Positions 2 to 46,792 of a stretch of DNA of 49,154 bases are shown one piece after another. Within the stretch, counting starts at the first letter, position 1. Each line of letters starts with the position of its first letter. Made by a program: the position numbers and the translations under genes. The notes beneath the pieces are model-generated. The model searched no databases. It was not told the DNA's origin and saw only the letters and a list, made by a program, of their open reading frames with translations. Source of the DNA: Gammaproteobacteria bacterium (GTDB taxonomy: Bacteria; Pseudomonadota; Gammaproteobacteria; UBA9214); NCBI GenBank assembly GCA_003230545.1, contig QIFB01000002.1:1-49154 (forward strand). Direction: 5' to 3'.

Positions 2-235
2 ATTGCCGGCGTGCTGCGCAACGGCCCGGCCGACGAGGCCGGCATTCAACCCGGCGACGTACTCACGGCAATCGGTGACATCGCGGTCAACGAACCAACC
101 GAGGCAATGAAAATCATTTCGGAACTGCGCCCGGAAACGGTGATCGAGCTCAGTGGCACACGCGATGGCAAGCAGTTCACCACCCGTGCAAAAATCATCC
201 AGCGCCCGCAGTCGAGTCCATTGAAGGACAGCTAG
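2..235 (+). CDS. 3' end of a DegS/DegP (HtrA)-family periplasmic serine endoprotease (C-terminal PDZ domain); the 5' part lies outside the window
   Basis: The frame is open from the window edge. Translation IAGVLRNGPADEAGIQPGDVLTAIGDIAVNEPTEAMKIISELRPE looks like an HtrA-family PDZ domain. Stop TAG at 233-235. Confidence 0.6.
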   Translation: MAGVLRNGPADEAGIQPGDVLTAIGDIAVNEPTEAMKIISELRPETVIELSGTRDGKQFTTRAKIIQRPQSSPLKDS

Positions 236-280
236 GTGCAGTTGCACCTGCGATATAACCCTGCCTGACACGCAGTGCAC

Positions 281-606
281 ATCCCTGATTGAGCAAATTG
301 CACCTTTCGAGCGTGAATCCGGTGTCCCTGGCAGGCCCCCTTGTCAGGGAACGCTGCAAGTCCATCCCTGGACGCTCAACGGCTTCATCCCTGAAGCCGA
401 TGTCCCTGACAAGGGGGCCACACCGGATTGCATGACGCAAAAATCTGTACGGTTACTCGGGGTACAGGGTGAATTCTCTAGACCGTTGGCCGCAGGGATG
501 CGGCCATCGAGCTTACAGGGACGTACTTGCAGCGTGTCTTGAGAAATCCCCCTGCACCCCGAGTGACCTTGCTCGGACCGTGCAACCTGCTCGATCAGGG
601 GAACAG
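281..606 (+). repeat. Nested-palindromic structured intergenic element, copy 1 (most degenerate copy)
   Basis: Same architecture as 25922-26253. It carries the invariant 68-nt core at 343-410 and the invariant 32-nt GACCGTTGGCCGCAGGGATGCGGCCATCGAGC at 481-512. Outer arms CCCTGATTGAGCAAATTGCAC / GTGCAACCTGCTCGATCAGGG are imperfectly complementary. It lies between the convergent protease and hisC stops. The strand label only gives orientation relative to the other copies. Confidence 0.85.
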
Positions 607-621
607 TCAAGTCCGGTGAAA

Positions 622-1704
622 TCAGAGGCATTCAGCGAGGGCTGCAAGGAACGCGGCATTTTCCTCCGGGCTGCCCACGGTCACCCGCAGGCAGTCCGCC
701 AGCGCCGTCACGGTTCCATTCAGGTTCTTGATCAAGATACCGCGCTCCTTGAGGCCGGCAAAAATTGCATCCGCACGACCCGGTGGTGTGCGTAACAGAA
801 TGAAATTGGCTTCGCTGGGAAACACGGTCAGCCCCGGCATTTCCTGCAATTGTGCAGACAGCGCTGCCCGGTCACGGCGCAAGCTGTCGGTCTGTTCGGA
901 AAACACGTCATAGTGCTGCAGGGCAAACACGCCGCATGCCTGGTTCAGCGTACTGATGTTGTAGGGCAGACGCGTTTTTTCGAACTCGGCAAGCCACGCT
1001 TCGGGCCCGGCCAGCAGACCAAGGCGCAGACCGGCAAAACCGATCTTGGACAGTGTTCGCAGCACCAGCAGGTTTTCCGTATCCGGTACTGCCGGCAGAA
1101 AACTGTGTTCGGTAAACGGCGCATAGGCCTCGTCGATCACCACCAGGCCGGGGGCATGTTCGATAATGGCCTCGACGGCGGTCCGGTCGAACAGGTTGCC
1201 GGTGGGATTATTCGGCCATGCCAGGAACACCACGGCCGGTTGCCGGTTGGCTATTTCAGCAAGCAGCGCCTCTGCGTCCAGCGTGAAGTCGGCGCGCAGC
1301 GGCACGCCGGCAAACTCCAGTCCGCACACCGTGGCAATCTGGCGATACATGACAAAGGTGGGTTCCGGCGCCATGATGACCCGGCCCGGAGCCGCGACGG
1401 TCTGGATGATCATCTGGATCAGCTCATCCGACCCGTTCCCGAGCATCACCGCGGCGCTGTCCGGCACCGCCATGCGCCGGCGCAGTTCCTGTTTCAATGC
1501 GGTGGCCTGCGGGTCCGGGTAGCGGTTCAGCTCGAGCGTACGCAACACCTCGAACCAGTCATCCAGCAGTGACTCCGGCCAGCGGTACGGGTTCTCCATC
1601 GCATCCAGCTTGATCAGGTTACCGGGGTCCGGCACGTGGTAGGCCGGGAGTGCACGCAGCTCGGGCCGCACCAGTTGGTCGATCCTGTCGTTTGCTGCCG
1701 TCAT
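622..1704 (-). CDS. hisC: Histidinol-phosphate aminotransferase
   Basis: 360-aa ORF with a HisC-like N-terminus ([11 protein letters not shown]...[10 protein letters not shown]) and class-II aminotransferase length. Its ATG overlaps the hisD stop (ATGA). Lies in a his operon context. Confidence 0.9.
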
Positions 1705-16966: not shown

Positions 16967-18700
16967 ATGAGTCTCGTCCTGCACGGTATTGGAGTTTCGC
17001 GCGGCATTGCCATCGGCAAGGCGCACATCATTATGCGCGGCAGCATCGAGGTCCTCGAAAGCGCTATCCCCTCCATTCTCATCGAGGATGAAGTCGCCCG
17101 CTTCCTGAAGGCGATTGAAACTGCACGCCTGCAACTGAGTTCGATCCGCGACCGTATACCGGTGGGCACCCGCCCTGACATCGCAGCATTCATCGATACG
17201 CACATACTGATGCTGGATGATGCCACCATCGTGAATACGCCGGTCGAAACGATACGCGAGCAGGGCTACAACGCGGAATGGGCACTGAAGTTGCAGCGCG
17301 ATGCCGTCGTCGGGGTATTCGAGCAGATGAATGATCCCTATCTGCGCACCCGCCGTGATGATGTGGACCATGTCATCAACCGTATCCAGCGCATCCTGCA
17401 GTCGACCAGCCAGGGAGATCTCCGCAGTGAAGACAGCCTGCAGGGCGCCATCGTACTGACCGATGACATGACCCCGGCTGAAACCGTACTGCTGGAACAC
17501 CAGGGCGCGAGCGCTTTTGCGACCGAATTCGGCGGCCCGCTGTCACATTCCGCCATCCTCGCGCGCAGCGTGCAGCTGCCGGCCATTGTCGGCGCCCACG
17601 GGCTGCGGCGTTATATCCACGATGGCGAGGAGATCATTCTCGACGGCATGCAGGGCATCCTGATCGCAGACCCGGGCCAGGACATTATTGATCATTATCG
17701 CGAGCTCAAGGCACAGGAAGCCCAGCGGCGCGCCGAACTGGCACGGCTGGCACATACCCCGGCAGTAACCCTCGATAACCACGCAATCCGGCTGATGGCC
17801 AACATCGAGCTGCCTGAAGACATCGATGCACTCAACCGTGAAAACACCAGCGGCATCGGGCTGTACCGTACCGAATTCCTGTTCATGAACCGCGTGTCGC
17901 TGCCGGATGAAGAAGAGCAGTATCTAAGCTACACCCGGGTGATCGATACGCTGAACGGCAAGCCGCTGACGATCCGTACGCTGGATATGGGTGCAGACAA
18001 GGAAATCGACGGCAGCGGCAGCCGCTGCAGCAATCCCGCCCTTGGCCTGCGCGCGGTGCGCCTGTGTCTCAAGGACCTCAGCCTGTTCTGTCCCCAGTTG
18101 CGGGCCATCCTGCGTGCCTCCGCCCACGGACCGGTACGCCTGATGATCCCCATGCTGTCCAACACCCGGGAACTCCACCAGGTACTCACGCTGATACGGG
18201 ATGCCGAAAACGCCCTGCAGCGCGAGGGTCTGGCATTTGATCCCAATATCCAGATCGGCGGCATGATCGAGGTACCGGCCGCCGCCATCTCGGCAATGGA
18301 CTTCGCCAGGCGCCTGGACTTTCTCTCCATCGGAACCAACGACCTGATCCAGTACACGCTCGCCATCGATCGTGTAGATGACGCGGTCAACTACCTGTAT
18401 GACCCGCTGCACCCGTCGGTGCTGCGGTTGATCAAGATCGTGATCGATGCCGGCAAGGAAACCGGTATACCCGTCGCCATGTGCGGCGAAATGGCCGGTG
18501 ATGCACGTTACACGCGGCTGCTGCTCGGCATGGGCCTGACAGAATTCAGCATGCACCACAGTGCAATGCAGGAGGTCAAGCGCGTCATTAACGACAGCTC
18601 CATCAGCGAGCTCATCCCGCGCGTCGATACATTGCTGCAATCGACCGAGCCGGAACAGCTTCCCACCGAGATTGAAGCTCTCAACCACCCGCCAGCCTGA
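16967..18700 (+). CDS. ptsI: Phosphoenolpyruvate-protein phosphotransferase (PTS enzyme I)
   Basis: 577 aa with the phospho-His region GGPLSHSAILARS and a PEP-utilising C-terminal domain (GTNDLIQYTLA...CGEMAG). It has no N-terminal GAF domain, so it is EI rather than EI-Ntr. Confidence 0.9.
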   Translation: MSLVLHGIGVSRGIAIGKAHIIMRGSIEVLESAIPSILIEDEVARFLKAIETARLQLSSIRDRIPVGTRPDIAAFIDTHILMLDDATIVNTPVETIREQGYNAEWALKLQRDAVVGVFEQMNDPYLRTRRDDVDHVINRIQRILQSTSQGDLRSEDSLQGAIVLTDDMTPAETVLLEHQGASAFATEFGGPLSHSAILARSVQLPAIVGAHGLRRYIHDGEEIILDGMQGILIADPGQDIIDHYRELKAQEAQRRAELARLAHTPAVTLDNHAIRLMANIELPEDIDALNRENTSGIGLYRTEFLFMNRVSLPDEEEQYLSYTRVIDTLNGKPLTIRTLDMGADKEIDGSGSRCSNPALGLRAVRLCLKDLSLFCPQLRAILRASAHGPVRLMIPMLSNTRELHQVLTLIRDAENALQREGLAFDPNIQIGGMIEVPAAAISAMDFARRLDFLSIGTNDLIQYTLAIDRVDDAVNYLYDPLHPSVLRLIKIVIDAGKETGIPVAMCGEMAGDARYTRLLLGMGLTEFSMHHSAMQEVKRVINDSSISELIPRVDTLLQSTEPEQLPTEIEALNHPPA

Positions 18701-18710
18701 CAAAACTTTT

Positions 18711-19105
18711 TGCTGTTCTCCTGATCGAGCAGACTGCATAGTCCGAGCAAGGTTACTCGGGGTCCAGGGAGAGACAGCTCAAGACCCGCTGTAAATACAT
18801 CCTGGTCACTCCCGGCATCCTGCCTCCCGCGACACTCGTACATCCCTGTACGTCGTACGCTCGATGGCCGCATCCCTGCGGCCAACGGTCTTGATCTATC
18901 TCTCCCTGGACCCCGAGTAACCGTACAGATTGTTGCGTCATGCAATCCGGTGCCCCCGGTCGTCCCCCTTGTCAGGGACATCGGCTTCAGGGATGAAGCC
19001 GTTGAGCGTCCAGGGATGGACTTGCAGCGTTCCCTGACAAGGGGGACGACCGGGGACGGCGGATGCACGCTCGACAGGTGCAGTCCGCTCGATCAGGAGA
19101 ACAGC
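18711..19105 (-). repeat. Nested-palindromic structured intergenic element, copy 2 (inverted relative to copies 1 and 3, with an extra ~55-nt module)
   Basis: The reverse complement aligns end to end with 25922-26253. The 68-nt core at 18971-19038 and the 32-nt block at 18859-18890 are identical to the other copies. Terminal arms TGCTGTTCTCCTGATCGAGC / GCTCGATCAGGAGAACAGC are perfect inverted repeats. It starts 11 nt after the ptsI stop and ends 92 nt before the mgtE ATG. Confidence 0.9.
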
Positions 19106-19197
19106 GAAACATTTACCCTGCCCTGCTTACTTACCGAATGTTGGGGAGGCTGTTACACTTCGCCCAACCCAGCCCGAAGTGTATTTGAGCCGCCGCC

Positions 19198-20556
19198 ATG
19201 ACCGACGTCGCAGAAACCGAGTCCATCAATACCCGGCGTGAACAGCTCATGCAGGCACTGGATGCCGGGGCCGCCGAGCAGATCGGTGCATTACTGTCAG
19301 GCCTGTACGCCGCAGAGATCGCCGACCTGCTGGAATCCTTCCCGCACGGCCCGCGCGAGATCCTGTGGGAACTGGTACACCCGGATGATCGTGGCGAGAC
19401 CCTGGTCGAGGTCAATGACGAGGTCCGTACCGGTCTCATCAATGAGATGGATCCCGAGCAACTGGTTGCCGCAACCGAGGGCCTGGATACCGACGACCTC
19501 GCCGATCTGCTGAACGACCTGCCGGGGGCCGTGATCCATGAAGTCCTGCGCTCCATGGACAAGCAGAACCGCGACCGGCTGGAAGCGGTGCTCCCCTACC
19601 CGGAAGACACGGCCGGCGGCATCATGAATGTGGACAGTGTTACGGTCCGGGCCGATGTCACCCTCGATGTCATTATGCGCTACCTCCGGGTACACCCGAA
19701 CATCCCGGAAACCACTGACCAGTTAATCGTGGTTGACCGCAACGACACTTACCGCGGTGTATTGCCGCTGACGACGCTGTTGGCCAATGACCCTGAACGG
19801 CTGGTTGCCGCGGTCATGAACCGCGAGGTTACCGCTATCCCTGCCGCATTACCGGACGTGGAGGTGGCACGCATGTTCGAGGACCGCGACCTGGTCTCGG
19901 CGCCGGTTGTCGATGACAACAACAAGCTGCTGGGACGCATCACCATTGACGATGTCGTCGATGTGATCCGTGAGGACGCCGACCACTCGCTGCTGAGCCT
20001 CGCCGGCCTCGACGAGGAGGACGACACCTTCGCACCGGTGTTCAAGAGTGCGCGGCGGCGTGCGGTCTGGCTGGGGATCAACCTGTTTACCGCCTTCATT
20101 GCCTCCTGGGTCATCGGCCTGTTCCAGGCCACACTGGAACAGGTAGTGGCCCTGGCCGTGCTGATGCCGATTGTTGCGAGCATGGGCGGTATTGCCGGCA
20201 GCCAGACGCTGATTATCGTCATTCGCGGTCTCGCACTGGGGCAGATTGGCCGCAGCAATGCGCGCTGGCTGATGTACAAGGAACTCTCGGTTTCCCTGCT
20301 GAATGGTATCGGCTGGGCACTGCTGGTCGCACTGATCACATGGCTGTGGTTTGAAGATGCCGGCATCGGGCTGGTGATCGCTGCGGCCCTGGTTATCAAT
20401 CTCGCGTGTGCCTCCATCGCCGGCATCACCATTCCCTTTGTACTCACCCGCATGAAGATTGACCCGGCGCACGCCGGCACCGTGCTGCTGACCACGGTCA
20501 CGGATGTGATCGGCTTCCTCGTCTTCCTGGGACTGGGAACAATCTTCCTGCTGTAG
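19198..20556 (+). CDS. mgtE: Magnesium transporter MgtE
   Basis: 452 aa with an MgtE N-domain, a CBS pair and a 5-TM C-terminal channel domain (GGIAGSQTL... motif). Confidence 0.9.
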   Translation: MTDVAETESINTRREQLMQALDAGAAEQIGALLSGLYAAEIADLLESFPHGPREILWELVHPDDRGETLVEVNDEVRTGLINEMDPEQLVAATEGLDTDDLADLLNDLPGAVIHEVLRSMDKQNRDRLEAVLPYPEDTAGGIMNVDSVTVRADVTLDVIMRYLRVHPNIPETTDQLIVVDRNDTYRGVLPLTTLLANDPERLVAAVMNREVTAIPAALPDVEVARMFEDRDLVSAPVVDDNNKLLGRITIDDVVDVIREDADHSLLSLAGLDEEDDTFAPVFKSARRRAVWLGINLFTAFIASWVIGLFQATLEQVVALAVLMPIVASMGGIAGSQTLIIVIRGLALGQIGRSNARWLMYKELSVSLLNGIGWALLVALITWLWFEDAGIGLVIAAALVINLACASIAGITIPFVLTRMKIDPAHAGTVLLTTVTDVIGFLVFLGLGTIFLL

Positions 20557-20610
20557 GACCCGCGCCTCGCGGGGAATATTTACCGTTCCCGGCGAGGACG
20601 CCGGTCCTAC
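20553..20610. repeat. REP inverted dimer (GTAGGACCGGCG...GGGAA family) between convergent mgtE and pmbA
   Basis: GTAGGACCCGCGCCTCGCGGGGAAT and the inverted copy of GTAGGACCGGCGTCCTCGCCGGGAACGG form one long hairpin. Both genes' TAG stop codons lie inside the GTAG heads. Confidence 0.75.
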
Positions 20611-22564: not shown

Positions 22565-22659
22565 GACCGGCCCTTTATACCCATTGGGGTGCCGGCTGGG
22601 AATGCCTTTCCCCGCGGGGCGCCGGTCCTACGTAGGACCGGCGCCCTCGCCGGGAATGG
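22561..22659. repeat. REP cluster of the GTAGGACCGG family (three units in alternating orientation)
   Basis: GTAGGACCGGCCC... (22561-), inverted GGGAATGCCTTTCCCCGCGGGGCGCCGGTCCTAC (22598-22631), and direct GTAGGACCGGCGCCCTCGCCGGGAATGG (22632-22659). Confidence 0.75.
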
Positions 22660-25854: not shown

Positions 25855-25921
25855 GGTTAGTTCATCTCCTGTTCACTGTGTCGGAATATTGTAGACAGCA
25901 CCCATGGAAATTTATATGTAT

Positions 25922-26253
25922 TTTCCCTGAGTGAGCGAACTGCACCTGCCGAGCGTGCATCCGCCGTCCCCGGCAGGCGCCCCTGTCAGGGAACGCTGCA
26001 AGTCCATCCCTGGACGCTCAACGGCTTCATCCCTGAAGCCGATGTCCCTGACAGGGGCGCCTGCCGCGTACACCGGATTGCATGACGCAACAGTCTGTAC
26101 GGTTACTCGGGGTCCAGGGGGGTTGCTCAAGACCGTTGGCCGCAGGGATGCGGCCATCGAGCGTACAGGGATGTATTTACAGCGGGTCTTGAGCAACCCC
26201 CCTGGGCCTCGAGTGACCTTGCTCGGACTGTGCAGTTCGCTCACTCAGGGAAA
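25922..26253 (+). repeat. Nested-palindromic structured intergenic element, copy 3 (best-preserved copy)
   Basis: A perfect 24-bp outer stem pairs 25922-25945 with 26230-26253. A perfect 21-bp stem (25972-25992/26045-26065) encloses two hairpins with TCCC loops. A 34-bp stem (26101-26134/26185-26218, only G:T exceptions) encloses two hairpins with GGGA loops. The element begins 67 nt upstream of the transcarbamylase ATG. Confidence 0.92.
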
Positions 26254-26355
26254 CAACCATTAAAATATTCAGAGGGAAAGACACCATATGCGCCGGGAAT
26301 CGGCGCAGTGCATGGTGTTGCTGCTGTCGCCTGATGCGACAGTCAGTCGTACCGC

Positions 26356-39319: not shown

Positions 39320-39407
39320 GTAGCCCGGATGCAGCGTTGCGGAATCCGGGGCTTAAATTGAGACAAGTCCCCCGGGTTCCGGCCCTCCGGGCCTGCACCC
39401 GGGCTAC
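39320..39407. repeat. REP inverted pair of the GTAGCCCGGAT family
   Basis: GTAGCCCGGATGCAGCGTTGCGGAATCCGGGGC (39320-39352) and inverted CCCGGGTTCCGGCCCTCCGGGCCTGCACCCGGGCTAC (39371-39407). Lies in the lptE-holA spacer. Confidence 0.75.
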
Positions 39408-42609: not shown

Positions 42610-43149
42610 ATGAGTGAGGAAAAATCCACCCGTGAAAAATGGCTCGCTGCCTATGACGACATGATGGTGCGGGTAAAAACCGCCATCGAGGAAGCCGGGG
42701 AAGCCGCGGGCCCTGTCCTGCAGCGCTATATTCACAATGCCCGGGACACGGCCATCGAACTCGGCGAGCTGACGCGGGAAGAGGCCGATAAGATCGCCAC
42801 CTACCTGGAACGGGATGTCGCGGACGCCGGCAGGCACCTTGCAGACACCGGCCACCAGCTCGGCGACTGGCTGCGCTTCGATATCGACCTGATCGAGGAC
42901 CGCCTGCTGGATGCACTGTTACTGGCCGCCGACCACACCCGGCTGGAAATCCAGCAGTTCGAGCACGACATCCAGGAAGGGCCGGCATGGAATACCGGCG
43001 AGGTCACCGGACCTGGTACCCTGGTATGCGTATCCTGCGGCAGCATCATGCGCTTCCATGCCACCGGGTATATCCCGAACTGCCCCAATTGCGAGCACAC
43101 GGTGTTTCATCGCAAGACCGCCCGCGATGAGCTGGATGATAAAACGTAG
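42610..43149 (+). CDS. Zinc-ribbon DUF1451 protein (YbeL-like)
   Basis: About 179 aa with a helical N-terminal part and a C-terminal CxxC...CPNC zinc ribbon (LVCVSCGSIMRF...IPNCPNCEHTVF). Adjacent to and divergent from leuS, like E. coli ybeL. ATG 42610 has an AGGA RBS; alternative starts are 42601 and 42577. Confidence 0.7.
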   Translation: MSEEKSTREKWLAAYDDMMVRVKTAIEEAGEAAGPVLQRYIHNARDTAIELGELTREEADKIATYLERDVADAGRHLADTGHQLGDWLRFDIDLIEDRLLDALLLAADHTRLEIQQFEHDIQEGPAWNTGEVTGPGTLVCVSCGSIMRFHATGYIPNCPNCEHTVFHRKTARDELDDKT

Positions 43150-43185
43150 CCCGGATGCAGCGCAGCGATAAAGGGGCCGGATACA
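43146..43185. repeat. Single REP unit of the GTAGCCCGGAT family
   Basis: GTAGCCCGGATGCAGCGCAGCG... Its TAG is the stop codon of the preceding DUF1451 gene. Confidence 0.55.
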
Positions 43186-43200
43186 TTTTTCAAGATTGCG

Positions 43201-43286
43201 CGAAACAGGGGACAGACCACGTTTTTCCATGTGGAGGTACCGGTGCCAGACAAGGTAGAGAAAAACGTGGTCTGTCCCCTGTTTCG
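43201..43286. repeat. Perfect 26-bp inverted repeat with a 34-nt spacer
   Basis: CGAAACAGGGGACAGACCACGTTTTT (43201-43226) is the exact reverse complement of 43261-43286. The right arm encodes the start of the Dabb protein signal peptide. Confidence 0.85.
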
Positions 43287-43656
43287 GGCTACCCTCTGTT
43301 TTGTTTTTCTTGCCTGCCTGCCACTGGCCGCTCAAGCCAGCGACGACAGCGGAACCGTCGAGCACGTCGTCGTGGTGTGGCTGAAAACCCCCGGCGACCG
43401 TACAGCACAGCAACAGGTCATCCGTGCAAGCCAGTCACTGAAATCGATTCCCGGCGTGGTGTCACTGAAGGCCGGTACCATGATCCCGAGCGAACGCCCG
43501 ATCGTCGACAGCAGTTTCGATATCGCGCTGACCGTCACCTTCACGGATGAGCAGGCCATGCAGCACTACCTCACCCATCCGACCCACGTGCAGCTGCTCG
43601 AGGAAACCCTGAAACCGCTGGTCGATAAAATTCAGGTGTACGATTTTCGTTATTGA
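43267..43656 (+). CDS. Secreted Dabb (stress-responsive alpha/beta-barrel) domain protein
   Basis: Signal peptide VVCPLFRATLCFVFLACLPLAAQA is followed by VEHVVVVWLK...HPTHVQL...IQVYDF, typical of a Dabb domain. The GTG at 43267 is preceded by a GGTAGAG RBS-like sequence. The ORF-track start is GTG 43231. Confidence 0.65.
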   Translation: MVCPLFRATLCFVFLACLPLAAQASDDSGTVEHVVVVWLKTPGDRTAQQQVIRASQSLKSIPGVVSLKAGTMIPSERPIVDSSFDIALTVTFTDEQAMQHYLTHPTHVQLLEETLKPLVDKIQVYDFRY

Positions 43657-43657
43657 G

Positions 43658-43689
43658 GAATGCCTTTCCCCGCAGGGCGCGGGTTCTAC
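43658..43689. repeat. REP unit of the GTAGGACCGG family (inverted, slightly diverged)
   Basis: GGAATGCCTTTCCCCGCAGGGCGCGGGTTCTAC. Its first 17 nt are identical to 22599-22615. The lnt TAG stop lies in its GTAG head. Confidence 0.65.
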
Positions 43690-46691: not shown

Positions 46692-46792
46692 GTAGCCCGG
46701 ATGGAGCATGGCGGAATCCGGGGAACTTGTTTGCAACAGCTTCCCGGATTCCGGCCTTCGGCCTCCATCCGGGCTACGACTATCCGGGCTAC
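46692..46792. repeat. REP cluster of the GTAGCCCGGAT family (direct, inverted, plus a partial unit)
   Basis: GTAGCCCGGATGGAGCATGGCGGAATCCGGGG (46692-46723), inverted CCCGGATTCCGGCCTTCGGCCTCCATCCGGGCTAC (46743-46776), and partial ATCCGGGCTAC (46782-46792). Lies in the ybeZ-ybeY spacer. Confidence 0.75.

Follow-up and report, generated by a model that had tools for sequence, protein, structure and literature searches.

A dispersed palindromic repeat of Gammaproteobacteria carries paired hairpins resembling CsrA/RsmA binding sites

Results

Three copies of a composite intergenic element

The window, by which we mean the whole stretch of 49,154 nucleotides analysed here (contig QIFB01000002.1), contains three copies of an intergenic element of about 325-385 nt, consisting of two long arms and terminal inverted repeats. 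LptB and MgtE assign the host to the uncultured Gammaproteobacteria. Each arm is a single module of ~97 nt. The two modules of an element are inverted relative to each other and separated by a 48-nt linker, with the terminal inverted repeats lying outside them, and a search with model R1 finds six modules in the window and no more. Copy 1 (282-606, + strand) separates the 3′ end of a PDZ-protease gene from that of an aminotransferase gene, has terminal inverted repeats at about 282-303 and 580-602, and has an ortholog in the metagenome contig L124. The module in its arm 1 (327-423, 86.5 bits against model R1) has its GGA-loop strand on the − strand, and that in arm 2 (463-559, 71 bits) has its GGA loops on the + strand, the second of them decayed to CAGGGACG.

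Copy 2 (18703-19114, − strand) occupies the spacer between ptsP and mgtE, with terminal inverted repeats at 18703-18738 and 19079-19114. Its arm 1 module is found at 18958-19054 (GGA loops on the + strand, 90.5 bits) and its arm 2 module at 18762-18908 (− strand, 66 bits), the latter placed by alignment and fold as well as by model R1. An insertion of ~50 nt at about 18804-18854 brings extra GGA-bearing hairpins into arm 2 on the same strand, and this strand of the arm has four GGA motifs, CAGGGAUG twice and CAGGAUG twice. Copy 3 (25911-26264, + strand) has − strand genes on both sides, being 70 nt upstream of one for an ornithine/aspartate carbamoyltransferase and downstream of one for a DUF2934 protein, and the core of its terminal inverted repeat is at 25925-25945 and 26230-26250. 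On the GGA strand of its arm 1 module (25969-26065, − strand, 91.6 bits) we find GGCUUCAGGGAUGAAGCC and GUCCAGGGAUGGAC, and in the arm 2 module (26113-26209, + strand, 92.2 bits) GGCCGCAGGGAUGCGGCC and GUACAGGGAUGUAU. The predicted fold of copy 3 has an energy of −238.9 kcal/mol (z = −19; z = −15 for the other strand), and complementarity between the 36-44-nt arms of the terminal inverted repeats is 82-89% in copies 2 and 3. Palindromes of this kind disrupt short-read assemblies and yield spurious ORFs of about 110 aa. Because the two modules are in inverted order, a transcript from either strand would contain one GGA-sense module and one antisense module with UCCC loops.

A preliminary description of this DNA had reported two blocks of identity among the copies, and both are exact. 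The 68-mer, for which no match is expected in shuffled sequences, is found at 343-410 (+), 25985-26052 (+) and 18971-19038 (−), in each case within an arm 1 module, and the 32-mer at 481-512 (+), 26131-26162 (+) and 18859-18890 (−), in arm 2. The 68-nt coordinates mark the tip of a single arm within the full element. None of the 68 columns of the first core varies among the three copies, and 2 of 40 vary in the second, compared with 57 of 217 in the rest of the element; at this last rate of variation, 0/68 has a probability of about 1e-9. That invariant cores sit in copies otherwise 26% diverged argues for selection after insertion.

The stems around these cores had been described as differing between copies by compensatory changes. 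All of the stem sequences quoted in support are found as written, and to quantify the changes we took the fold of copy 3, with its 131 base pairs, and scored each pair across the three copies. Invariant pairs account for 96 of the 131. Another 11 are altered on both sides and still paired in every copy, as the description had it, while 6 are altered on both sides and unpaired in at least one copy; 5 one-sided changes are kept as wobble pairs, 7 pairs are broken and 6 are gapped.

Architecture, covariation and the folding strand

The 68-nt invariant core corresponds to the apical three-way junction of the ~97-nt module. A long closing stem of 20-35 bp, free in sequence and always paired, encloses two small hairpins and short, conserved junction strands, GAGCG and ACAGCG. 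Both hairpin loops have the profile C-A-N-G-G-A-N-G, which is CAGGGAUG in this genome, so that each unit presents two GGA sites.

Among 121 related modules from other genomes, compensatory changes are seen at 24 of 28 pairs. Paired cells make up 86.8% of this alignment, compared with 56% in shuffles and 34-48% when the partners are slid, and the covariation score is 0.757 against 0.21. The earlier idea that pairing rather than primary sequence is maintained in the stems is thus borne out well beyond the window. These first 121 modules were gathered with a pattern in which both loops were fixed, so that loop invariance among them is circular. A set of 38 modules outside the pattern selection escapes this problem, and here the octamer varies solely at positions 3 and 7, in both hairpins; the retention of C-A-N-G-G-A-N-G in these modules agrees with the proposal that the loop-bearing cores are under sequence constraint. 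Covariation and loop conservation in the wider family also favour the suggestion that the pattern could reflect a structure recognised by a protein.

The asymmetry between G·U and A·C mismatches, proposed earlier as a way to tell which strand folds, identifies the GGA-loop strand: on this strand we count 142 G·U against 87 A·C, about 2:1. When stems are collapsed into 82 types, G·U is in excess in 42 and A·C in 13 (p = 1e-4). Arms that were exact copies of each other, with no such asymmetry, had been named as the signature that would speak against a selected structure; the arms observed carry wobbles and mismatches, and G·U exceeds A·C. Selection thus acts on the module both for pairing of the GGA strand and for loop sequence, and gene conversion inside the DNA palindrome may contribute too.

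Distribution and mobility

Many Gammaproteobacteria carry the module as a dispersed intergenic repeat in multiple copies, among them Yersinia pseudotuberculosis, Pectobacterium, Halomonas, Marinobacter and Shewanella. We find it at a minimum of 118 loci, nearly all of them gammaproteobacterial, and several loci per genome are common, with stems that are identical within a genome and specific to it. The tip is 90-97% identical over about 60 nt between different bacterial orders. Most family members are single modules without a partner arm. When two modules lie close together, the inverted (−)(+) layout is the usual one, being seen in 9 of 15 close pairs in other taxa and in all three window elements. 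A metagenome scan for further composite elements, in which the 20-nt linker sequence served as the query, returned a single contig, whose element is orthologous to copy 1 and which has a fold-back artefact, and a plasmid collection gave no module match.

The ptsP-mgtE spacer allows a direct comparison of occupied and empty sites. It measures 497 nt with the element in the window and 109 nt, empty, in the relative L126; in three further relatives (L125, L127 and L128) it has other content and no module. The element is therefore present or absent at the same site among close relatives, i.e., it is insertion-polymorphic. No target-site duplication was found, as the flanks of the three window copies have no direct repeat in common. 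The T-run and A-run that flank the copies merely extend the palindrome.

Neither a recurrent transposase-like gene nor an HUH...Y..NP motif occurs among 2741 ORFs at the 118 loci (about 0.9 Mb around them), where the recurrent neighbours are housekeeping genes such as recJ, lysS, hom and ABC transporters. In L016, where modules bracket a gene, that gene is aroA and no transposase. Modules lie between convergent genes at 30 sites and between divergent genes at 12. Relative to co-directional genes, 23 are sense and 17 antisense with improved gene calls, which is not significant; cruder calls had pointed to an orientation bias of 30 vs 14.

Loops of the CsrA/RsmA type

The module loop profile coincides, in both hairpins, with the published Rsm-binding motif 5′-CANGGANG-3′, whose consensus is (A/U)CANGGANG(U/A), and the SELEX consensus for CsrA is RUACARGGAUGU (PMC6849547). 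In copy 3, GUACAGGGAUGU at 26163-26174 agrees with the SELEX consensus at 12/12 positions, and the window hairpin GGCUUCAGGGAUGAAGCC differs at one N base from GGGCUUCACGGAUGAAGCCC, the hcnA RNA in the RsmE complex 2JPP. All modules have a GGA-to-GGA distance of 21-25 nt, those of the window 23 nt. Mercante et al. (2009) reportedly found that one dimer can bridge sites from about 10 to 63 nt apart and does so best near 18 nt, a range that includes the spacing in the modules. With GGA in the loop of a short hairpin and a good fit to the consensus, the modules qualify as candidate CsrA/RsmA sites. We also considered GGGA as a GNRA tetraloop, which is ruled out by the UGGA, CGGA and AGGA loops of other family members; given these loops, the constraint is on GGA rather than on a GNRA tetraloop or on perfect loop-loop complementarity. 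The csrA gene itself was not seen within the DNA stretches examined, which are genome segments.

The modules share with CsrB, CsrC, RsmX/Y/Z and the hcnA-RsmE hairpin the display of GGA in short hairpin loops that fit both consensus sequences, and with the Csr/Rsm decoy sRNAs the arrangement of hairpins in neighbouring pairs, suiting a CsrA dimer. Unlike genes for such decoys, however, they are dispersed, in many copies and either orientation, and insertion-polymorphic, and unlike the decoys themselves a module has just two sites, placed inside its long stem. A GacA/UvrY box (TGTAAGN6CTTACA, up to 2 mismatches) was found upstream of 0/102 modules and near none of the window copies, and copy 3 has no promoter-like or terminator-like site. 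A stand-alone sRNA gene of the Rsm type is rejected for want of GacA box, promoter and terminator.

Ysr224 and other known families

At gathering score no Rfam family matches the window, and the Csr/Rsm models match neither the window nor 36 loci, nor window positions 200-700 at E up to 10. A permissive scan gives weak matches to Ysr224 and Xoo2 only. The Ysr224 covariance model (RF02770) gives the window modules 23.3 bits (E = 0.005) and 13 bits, below the gathering score of 70, but a Pectobacterium relative of the module (L055, 5742-5848) reaches 95.1 bits, above it. Model R1 bridges the two, with 71.9 bits for the Pectobacterium sequence and about 66-92 bits for the window modules. Ysr224 also has the same plan as the module: a long stem, a GCGCC-loop-GGCGC hairpin, a GAGCG junction, a UACA-loop-UGUA hairpin and a UUUACAGCG junction. 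It is the only Rfam family related to the module. Two differences stand out: the Rfam model describes the opposite, UCCC-loop strand, complementary to the GGA strand of the module, and the family is in practice confined to Enterobacterales, whereas the module spans Gammaproteobacteria. A review places Ysr224 among the most abundant annotated 'sRNAs', counting every instance per strain, an abundance that fits a repeat. The Ysr224 literature we searched records no function, CsrA link, repeat or mobile nature, or class-wide distribution, and searches by name, sequence and concept returned no description of the module family.

Like REP, BIME and REPIN sequences, the modules are extragenic palindromic repeats with species-specific stems, frequent between convergent genes, forming inverted doublets of favoured polarity and leaving no target duplication. 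Unlike a REP, which is a 20-40-nt hairpin with a GTAG/CTAC head, the module is about 97 nt long, forms a three-way junction and lacks a conserved GTAG, and its tip has been conserved from order to order, in contrast to the lineage-specific REPs. The flanks of the 118 loci revealed no RAYT. The window has separate, canonical GTAG-headed REP doublets as well. Of the features that define a MITE, the window elements show terminal inverted repeats and presence or absence at an orthologous site but no target-site duplication. ERIC/IRU in enterobacteria and Correia elements in Neisseria, bacterial MITEs with effects at the RNA level upon co-transcription, share with the element terminal inverted repeats, a length of 100-400 nt, an intergenic position, a whole-length hairpin fold and strain-variable presence. 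In contrast to them, the element shows no target-site duplication, and it has no sequence similarity to them; neither is known to carry a conserved RNA-binding-protein motif. The TwoAYGGAY motif of Rfam, found partly in Gammaproteobacteria, likewise has two adjacent hairpins with a conserved GGA-containing loop, but its loop reads AYGGAY, where that of the module is ANGGAN with a closing C-G, and there is no long enclosing stem; cmscan gave no match to it at gathering score or at E = 10.

Discussion

Identical cores beside differing flanks can be produced by conversion between copies, and there are just three copies in this genome. The element could then be a functionless palindrome, in which gene conversion between the arms or hairpin-templated repair preserves complementarity and concerted evolution between copies preserves the cores. 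We regard this as highly improbable, because the two arms deviate from exact complementarity (5 wobble and 7 broken pairs), the asymmetry between strands is significant, loop variation is limited to two specific positions, and near-identity of the tip across orders is beyond the reach of conversion. More weight is due to the idea of a selfish repeat that acts at the DNA level, like a REP/REPIN or MITE, although we still consider it rather unlikely. Here the tips and junction strands would form the site of a transposase or recombinase, recognised on extruded or single-stranded DNA, and the likeness to CsrA sites would be coincidental or secondary; the enzyme could be of the HUH/Y1 type acting in trans, leaving no target-site duplication. 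This would agree with repeats that are multi-copy, extragenic and insertion-polymorphic, with the REPIN-like preference for one polarity of inverted doublets, with terminal inverted repeats lacking a target duplication, with the excess of convergent over divergent sites (30 vs 12) and with the lack of a clear transcriptional orientation bias. It would also agree with the conservation of AGCG tetranucleotides on both sides of hairpin 2, which resemble the guide/cleavage sequences of IS200/IS605-type systems. However, about 0.9 Mb around the 118 loci revealed neither a recurrent transposase-like gene nor an HUH-Y1 motif, and the REPs recognised by RAYTs are species-specific with a GTAG head, whereas the module tip lacks GTAG and has been conserved from one order to another. 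The excess of G·U over A·C marks one specific folding strand, a selfish repeat does not predict loop variation limited to the two N positions of CANGGANG, and the cores stay invariant in situ in inserted copies that are elsewhere so diverged.

A structured RNA with no link to CsrA would explain the very stable folds on both strands (z = −19 and −15) and the strong covariation. It could be an RNase barrier or a terminator-like insulator, or regulate neighbouring genes by kissing between the UCCC loops of one arm and the GGGA loops of the other or by pairing with Shine-Dalgarno-like GGGA, and the active strand could be the UCCC strand, as in Ysr224, whose Yersinia transcript comes from that strand and is reported to be temperature-responsive. 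The constant combination of complementary loop sets in inverted dimers and the conservation of the junction strands beyond what CsrA requires point the same way. We nevertheless find this account improbable: the wobble asymmetry points to the GGA strand and against the UCCC strand, UGGA, CGGA and AGGA loops speak against GNRA and perfect loop-loop complementarity, the majority of members lack a partner arm, and U-tracts after the stems are nearly absent, with a terminator-like site nearby at 15/109 loci. The association with terminators is in itself uninformative (9 vs 5 sites, and 94 loci with none).

On balance, the modules probably form a REP/MITE-like repeat family that is spread as a DNA palindrome and would show paired candidate CsrA-binding hairpins once transcribed. 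The element lacks its own promoter, GacA box and terminator, and we infer from this that it would be transcribed by read-through from adjoining genes. The GGA-sense module in such a transcript would provide a high-affinity, two-site clamp for one CsrA/RsmA dimer, and could act in cis as a handle on the mRNA it adjoins, contribute one unit to a distributed CsrA decoy, or do both. The long stem would have a stabilising role like that of REPs, and the DNA palindrome would be what some mechanism copies around the genome.

Several observations weigh against the CsrA part of this explanation. Orientation relative to co-directional genes has no significant bias (23 vs 17), and Ysr224, the sole curated relative, was defined from the opposite transcript. 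The (−)(+) dimer would put the antisense module first in any read-through transcript, and a purely selfish element is not expected to require a host RNA-binding protein. Conservation of the GAGCG and ACAGCG junction strands also makes recognition by CsrA alone an insufficient explanation.

More tentatively, we propose a stronger form of the preferred reading, in which mobile intergenic repeats across the class carry a ready-made, high-affinity, two-site CsrA/RsmA clamp, recruit genes to Csr control, and collectively form a transcription-dependent CsrA sponge. CsrA binding could become conditional in inverted dimers if UCCC loops on the antisense arm mask the sense-arm GGA loops.

Should CsrA be the wrong partner, there would still be good support for the module as a structured, covarying element that is conserved from order to order and that Rfam lacks for non-enteric bacteria. 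Gammaproteobacteria rely on CsrA/RsmA as a master post-transcriptional regulator, and for many lineages, including most carriers of the module, the RNAs that antagonise it and a large part of its regulon are undescribed. To judge from its loops, a spreading repeat may scatter putative regulator-binding sites around these genomes. If the CsrA reading is true, CsrA would have a class of partner that had so far gone unrecognised, a spreading repeat that displays its optimal ligand, and insertion into untranslated regions would offer a simple route for change of the Csr regulon. This reading would also account for Ysr224, an abundant yet uncharacterised Rfam 'sRNA', and the repeat family would represent a bacterial counterpart of the eukaryotic transposable elements that spread regulator-binding sites.

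Results

A composite palindrome in three intergenic spacers

The preliminary description had reported a 68-nt block and a 32-nt block, each identical at three sites. Both are exact: the 68-mer, for which no matches are expected by chance, at 343-410 (+), 25985-26052 (+) and 18971-19038 (-), and the 32-mer at 481-512, 26131-26162 and 18859-18890 (-). While the repeat stands, its extent does not, since a three-region alignment and a repeat search reveal a much larger unit with two inverted arms and terminal inverted repeats. Copy 1 (282-606, about 325 nt) is flanked by genes for a PDZ protease and an aminotransferase, copy 2 (18703-19114, about 385-410 nt, oriented opposite to the other copies) by ptsP and mgtE, and copy 3 (25911-26264, about 330-350 nt) by genes for a DUF2934 protein and a carbamoyltransferase. 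All three are intergenic among housekeeping genes, and the window contains no transposase genes. At 25912-26263 and 18508-19068 the palindromic elements give rise to spurious ORFs of 110-186 aa that mirror one another across the two strands, and gene callers could label these as hypothetical proteins.

Either strand folds so that the terminal inverted repeats form an outer stem followed by two long arms (-239 and -230 kcal/mol for the two strands; z = -19 and -15). Both arms terminate in a three-way junction bearing two small hairpins, whose loops on the element's strand are CAUCCCUG in arm 1 and CAGGGAUG in arm 2. The arm 1 module recurs in arm 2, inverted and diverged, with a similar tip and different hairpin stems and long stems. 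A scan of the window with R1, our covariance model of the ~97-nt module, yields exactly six modules and nothing beyond them: two per element, always in the order (-)(+). Within a module, 21-25 nt separate the two GGA motifs, a spacing that one CsrA dimer can bridge. Arm 2 of copy 2 also carries a 50-nt insertion with further GGA-bearing hairpins on the same strand, which brings its GGA motifs to four (CAGGGAUG and CAGGAUG, each present twice).

In the three-copy alignment the two cores vary at 0/68 and 2/40 columns and the rest of the element at 57/217, a rate at which 0/68 has a chance probability of ~1e-9. The stem sequences quoted in the preliminary description all occur in the window, and the stems do change between copies while staying paired: of 131 base pairs in the predicted structure, 11 are changed on both sides and paired in all copies. 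A further 96 pairs are invariant, five have one-sided changes leaving wobble pairs, six have both-sided changes with pairing lost in at least one copy, seven are broken and six are gapped.

Covariation, folding strand and distribution

Using the two loops and four junction bases as a pattern, we found the module at no fewer than 118 loci in species-representative genomes. Among the matches listed nearly all are gammaproteobacterial, with hosts in Halomonadaceae, Marinobacter, Microbulbifer, Shewanella, Aeromonadaceae, Pectobacterium, Pantoea, Enterobacter, Morganella, Thiohalobacter, Thiogranum, Sedimenticola, Thiodiazotropha, Lysobacterales and Legionellales. Across these orders the apical ~60 nt share 90-97% identity with those of the window, and the stems are unrelated in sequence and always paired, as expected if pairing and not stem sequence is maintained. 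Covariation of the module stems is strong: 24 of 28 pairs show compensatory changes, 86.8% of cells are paired (56% in shuffles, 34-48% with slid partners), and the covariation score is 0.757 vs 0.21.

Because an A·C mismatch on one strand is a G·U pair on the opposite strand, the two can be compared to find the folding strand. Read on the strand whose loops contain GGA, the outer stems hold 142 G·U against 87 A·C; when each of the 82 different stem types is counted once, 42 have more G·U than A·C and 13 have more A·C than G·U (p = 1e-4). The GGA strand is thus the one under selection to fold single-stranded. Module orientation relative to neighbouring genes gives no firm answer (30 vs 14 with crude gene calls, 23 vs 17 with better calls). 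Sites between convergent genes outnumber those between divergent genes by 30 to 12, and terminator scans around the modules were uninformative.

Several genomes have multiple loci sharing stems, which is repeat-family behaviour. Nine of 15 close module pairs are inverted in the window's (-)(+) order, and such pairs recur in Marinobacter, Microbulbifer, Lysobacterales and several MAGs. In E. coli the enterobacterial form is rare, occurring in 5 of 5426 complete genomes; the copies, for example those on a plasmid and a chromosome at loci L119 and L120 (6001-6133), lie on acquired DNA, always downstream of a gene for an iron-containing alcohol dehydrogenase and amid IS5, IS26 and Tn3 fragments. 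Other arrangements were also seen. A Shewanella carassii locus (L015, 1-1500) has ~1.4 kb of non-coding DNA made of ~440-nt tandem units with one module each in the same orientation, one of them interrupted, a layout unlike the inverted dimers found elsewhere. In two other Shewanella loci (L080, 3775-4930; L071, 4893-6170) (-)...(+) modules flank one AT-rich ORF, of 186 and 234 aa respectively, which may be cargo. At locus L083 (5175-5753) an inverted dimer lies in the map-rpsB spacer, directly upstream of a t44 RNA (Rfam RF00127, 64 bits).

Insertion polymorphism

The host is an uncultured gammaproteobacterium, and its relatives offer a comparison for copy 2. With copy 2 in it, the window's ptsP-mgtE spacer measures 497 nt. 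The corresponding spacer is 109 nt without the element in L126 (88% MgtE identity), 288 nt without a module in L125 and L127, and 224 nt in L128. The last is a very close relative: its LptB is identical, and so are the 70 nt preceding mgtE. In L128 (GCA_048061175.1, 14932-15060) an unrelated ~85-nt hairpin element (CTGCAGGGCCGAA...TTCGGCCCTGCA) replaces the composite element, and this intergenic region looks like a hot spot for the insertion of palindromes. Syntenic DNA of relatives, about 58 kb in all, holds no modules, against six in the window's 49 kb. No target-site duplication is visible. At the copy 1 ortholog in a metagenome contig (VAPA010109527.1; locus L124, 1519-1594) the contig end folds back inside arm 1, a misassembly due to the palindrome; in a relative, a short-read contig likewise seems to break off close to copy 3.

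Loop sequences and known families

Since the search pattern itself had set the loops of the first collection, we profiled them in 38 modules recovered by R1 without the loop pattern. The octamer C-A-N-G-G-A-N-G is kept, as the proposed sequence constraint on the loop-bearing cores would have it, and varies at positions 3 and 7 only. For hairpins 1 and 2 respectively, C1 is found in 34/36 and 37/38, A2 in 35/36 and 37/37, G4 in 35/35 and 37/37, G5 in 33/35 and 37/37, A6 in 34/34 and 37/37, and G8 in 34/36 and 37/38; N3 is G22/T11/C2/A1 and G27/T6/C3/A1, and N7 is T24/C7/A3 and T22/C8/A4/G2. The non-G bases at N3 rule out GNRA tetraloops. The same C-A-N-G-G-A-N-G is the Rsm-binding motif, part of the consensus (A/U)CANGGANG(U/A), and GUACAGGGAUGU agrees at every position with the SELEX consensus RUACARGGAUGU (PMC6849547). 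The window hairpin GGCUUCAGGGAUGAAGCC differs by one N base from the hcnA RNA GGGCUUCACGGAUGAAGCCC in the RsmE complex (PDB 2JPP).

In the window and 36 loci no Rfam family reached its gathering score except Ysr224 (RF02770) in Pectobacterium, which leaves the module outside the curated Csr/Rsm families. The Ysr224 model gives 95 bits for the Pectobacterium module and 23 and 13 bits for window modules, and it describes the strand complementary to the GGA strand; that Ysr224 is among the most abundant annotated 'sRNAs' in a review fits a repeat. A stand-alone sRNA gene was rejected, as GacA/UvrY box, promoter and terminator are all missing. The module is not a canonical REP either, having no GTAG head, and the surroundings of the 118 listed loci show no recurrent transposase gene, RAYT-like or other.

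Separate GTAG-headed REP doublets are also present in the window. One family (GTAGGACCGGCGYCC; 20553-20610, 22617-22646 and 43675-43689; 5 copies vs 0.26 expected) is arranged as inverted doublets, which sit at the 3' ends of mgtE/pmbA and of genes nearby, and a second (GTAGCCCGGATGSAGC; 39320-39407, 43146-43161 and 46692-46777; 5 copies vs 0.06 expected) has two sites that are inverted doublets of the REPIN kind. A lone palindrome at 43198-43289 (30-nt arms 97% complementary, 32-nt spacer) is unrelated to the module, with only 13 bits to R1. Literature searches by name, sequence and concept returned no description of the module family or of a CsrA-site-bearing repeat.

Discussion

What emerges is a family of repeated palindromes with insertion polymorphism, in which the sequence of the tip is strongly constrained and the stems are constrained to pair on the GGA strand. 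The element resembles both REP/MITE-like repeats and Csr decoys. We lean towards a mobile palindrome whose GGA-sense module, when transcribed, is predicted from its sequence to bind a dimer of CsrA/RsmA, the global RNA-binding regulator. Against CsrA, orientation relative to genes shows no clear bias, the conservation of the junction bases is not explained by it, and the sole experimentally detected family member was observed on the other strand. A purely DNA-level, REPIN-like element is possible though on the unlikely side; the inverted dimers and empty sites in relatives are of that character, and the G·U excess points to a folded single strand. Rather less probable is an RNA structure that has nothing to do with CsrA and may act through the UCCC-loop complement, the strand of the Ysr224 model, or through loop-loop contacts; the conserved junction bases speak for it. 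That the palindrome is functionless and maintained by gene conversion strikes us as very improbable.

If the CsrA/RsmA reading is right, read-through transcription would produce a GGA-sense module that captures a CsrA/RsmA dimer. The bound module could then act as a cis handle, belong to a distributed decoy, or combine the two roles, while the DNA palindrome would be the substrate of some copying mechanism.
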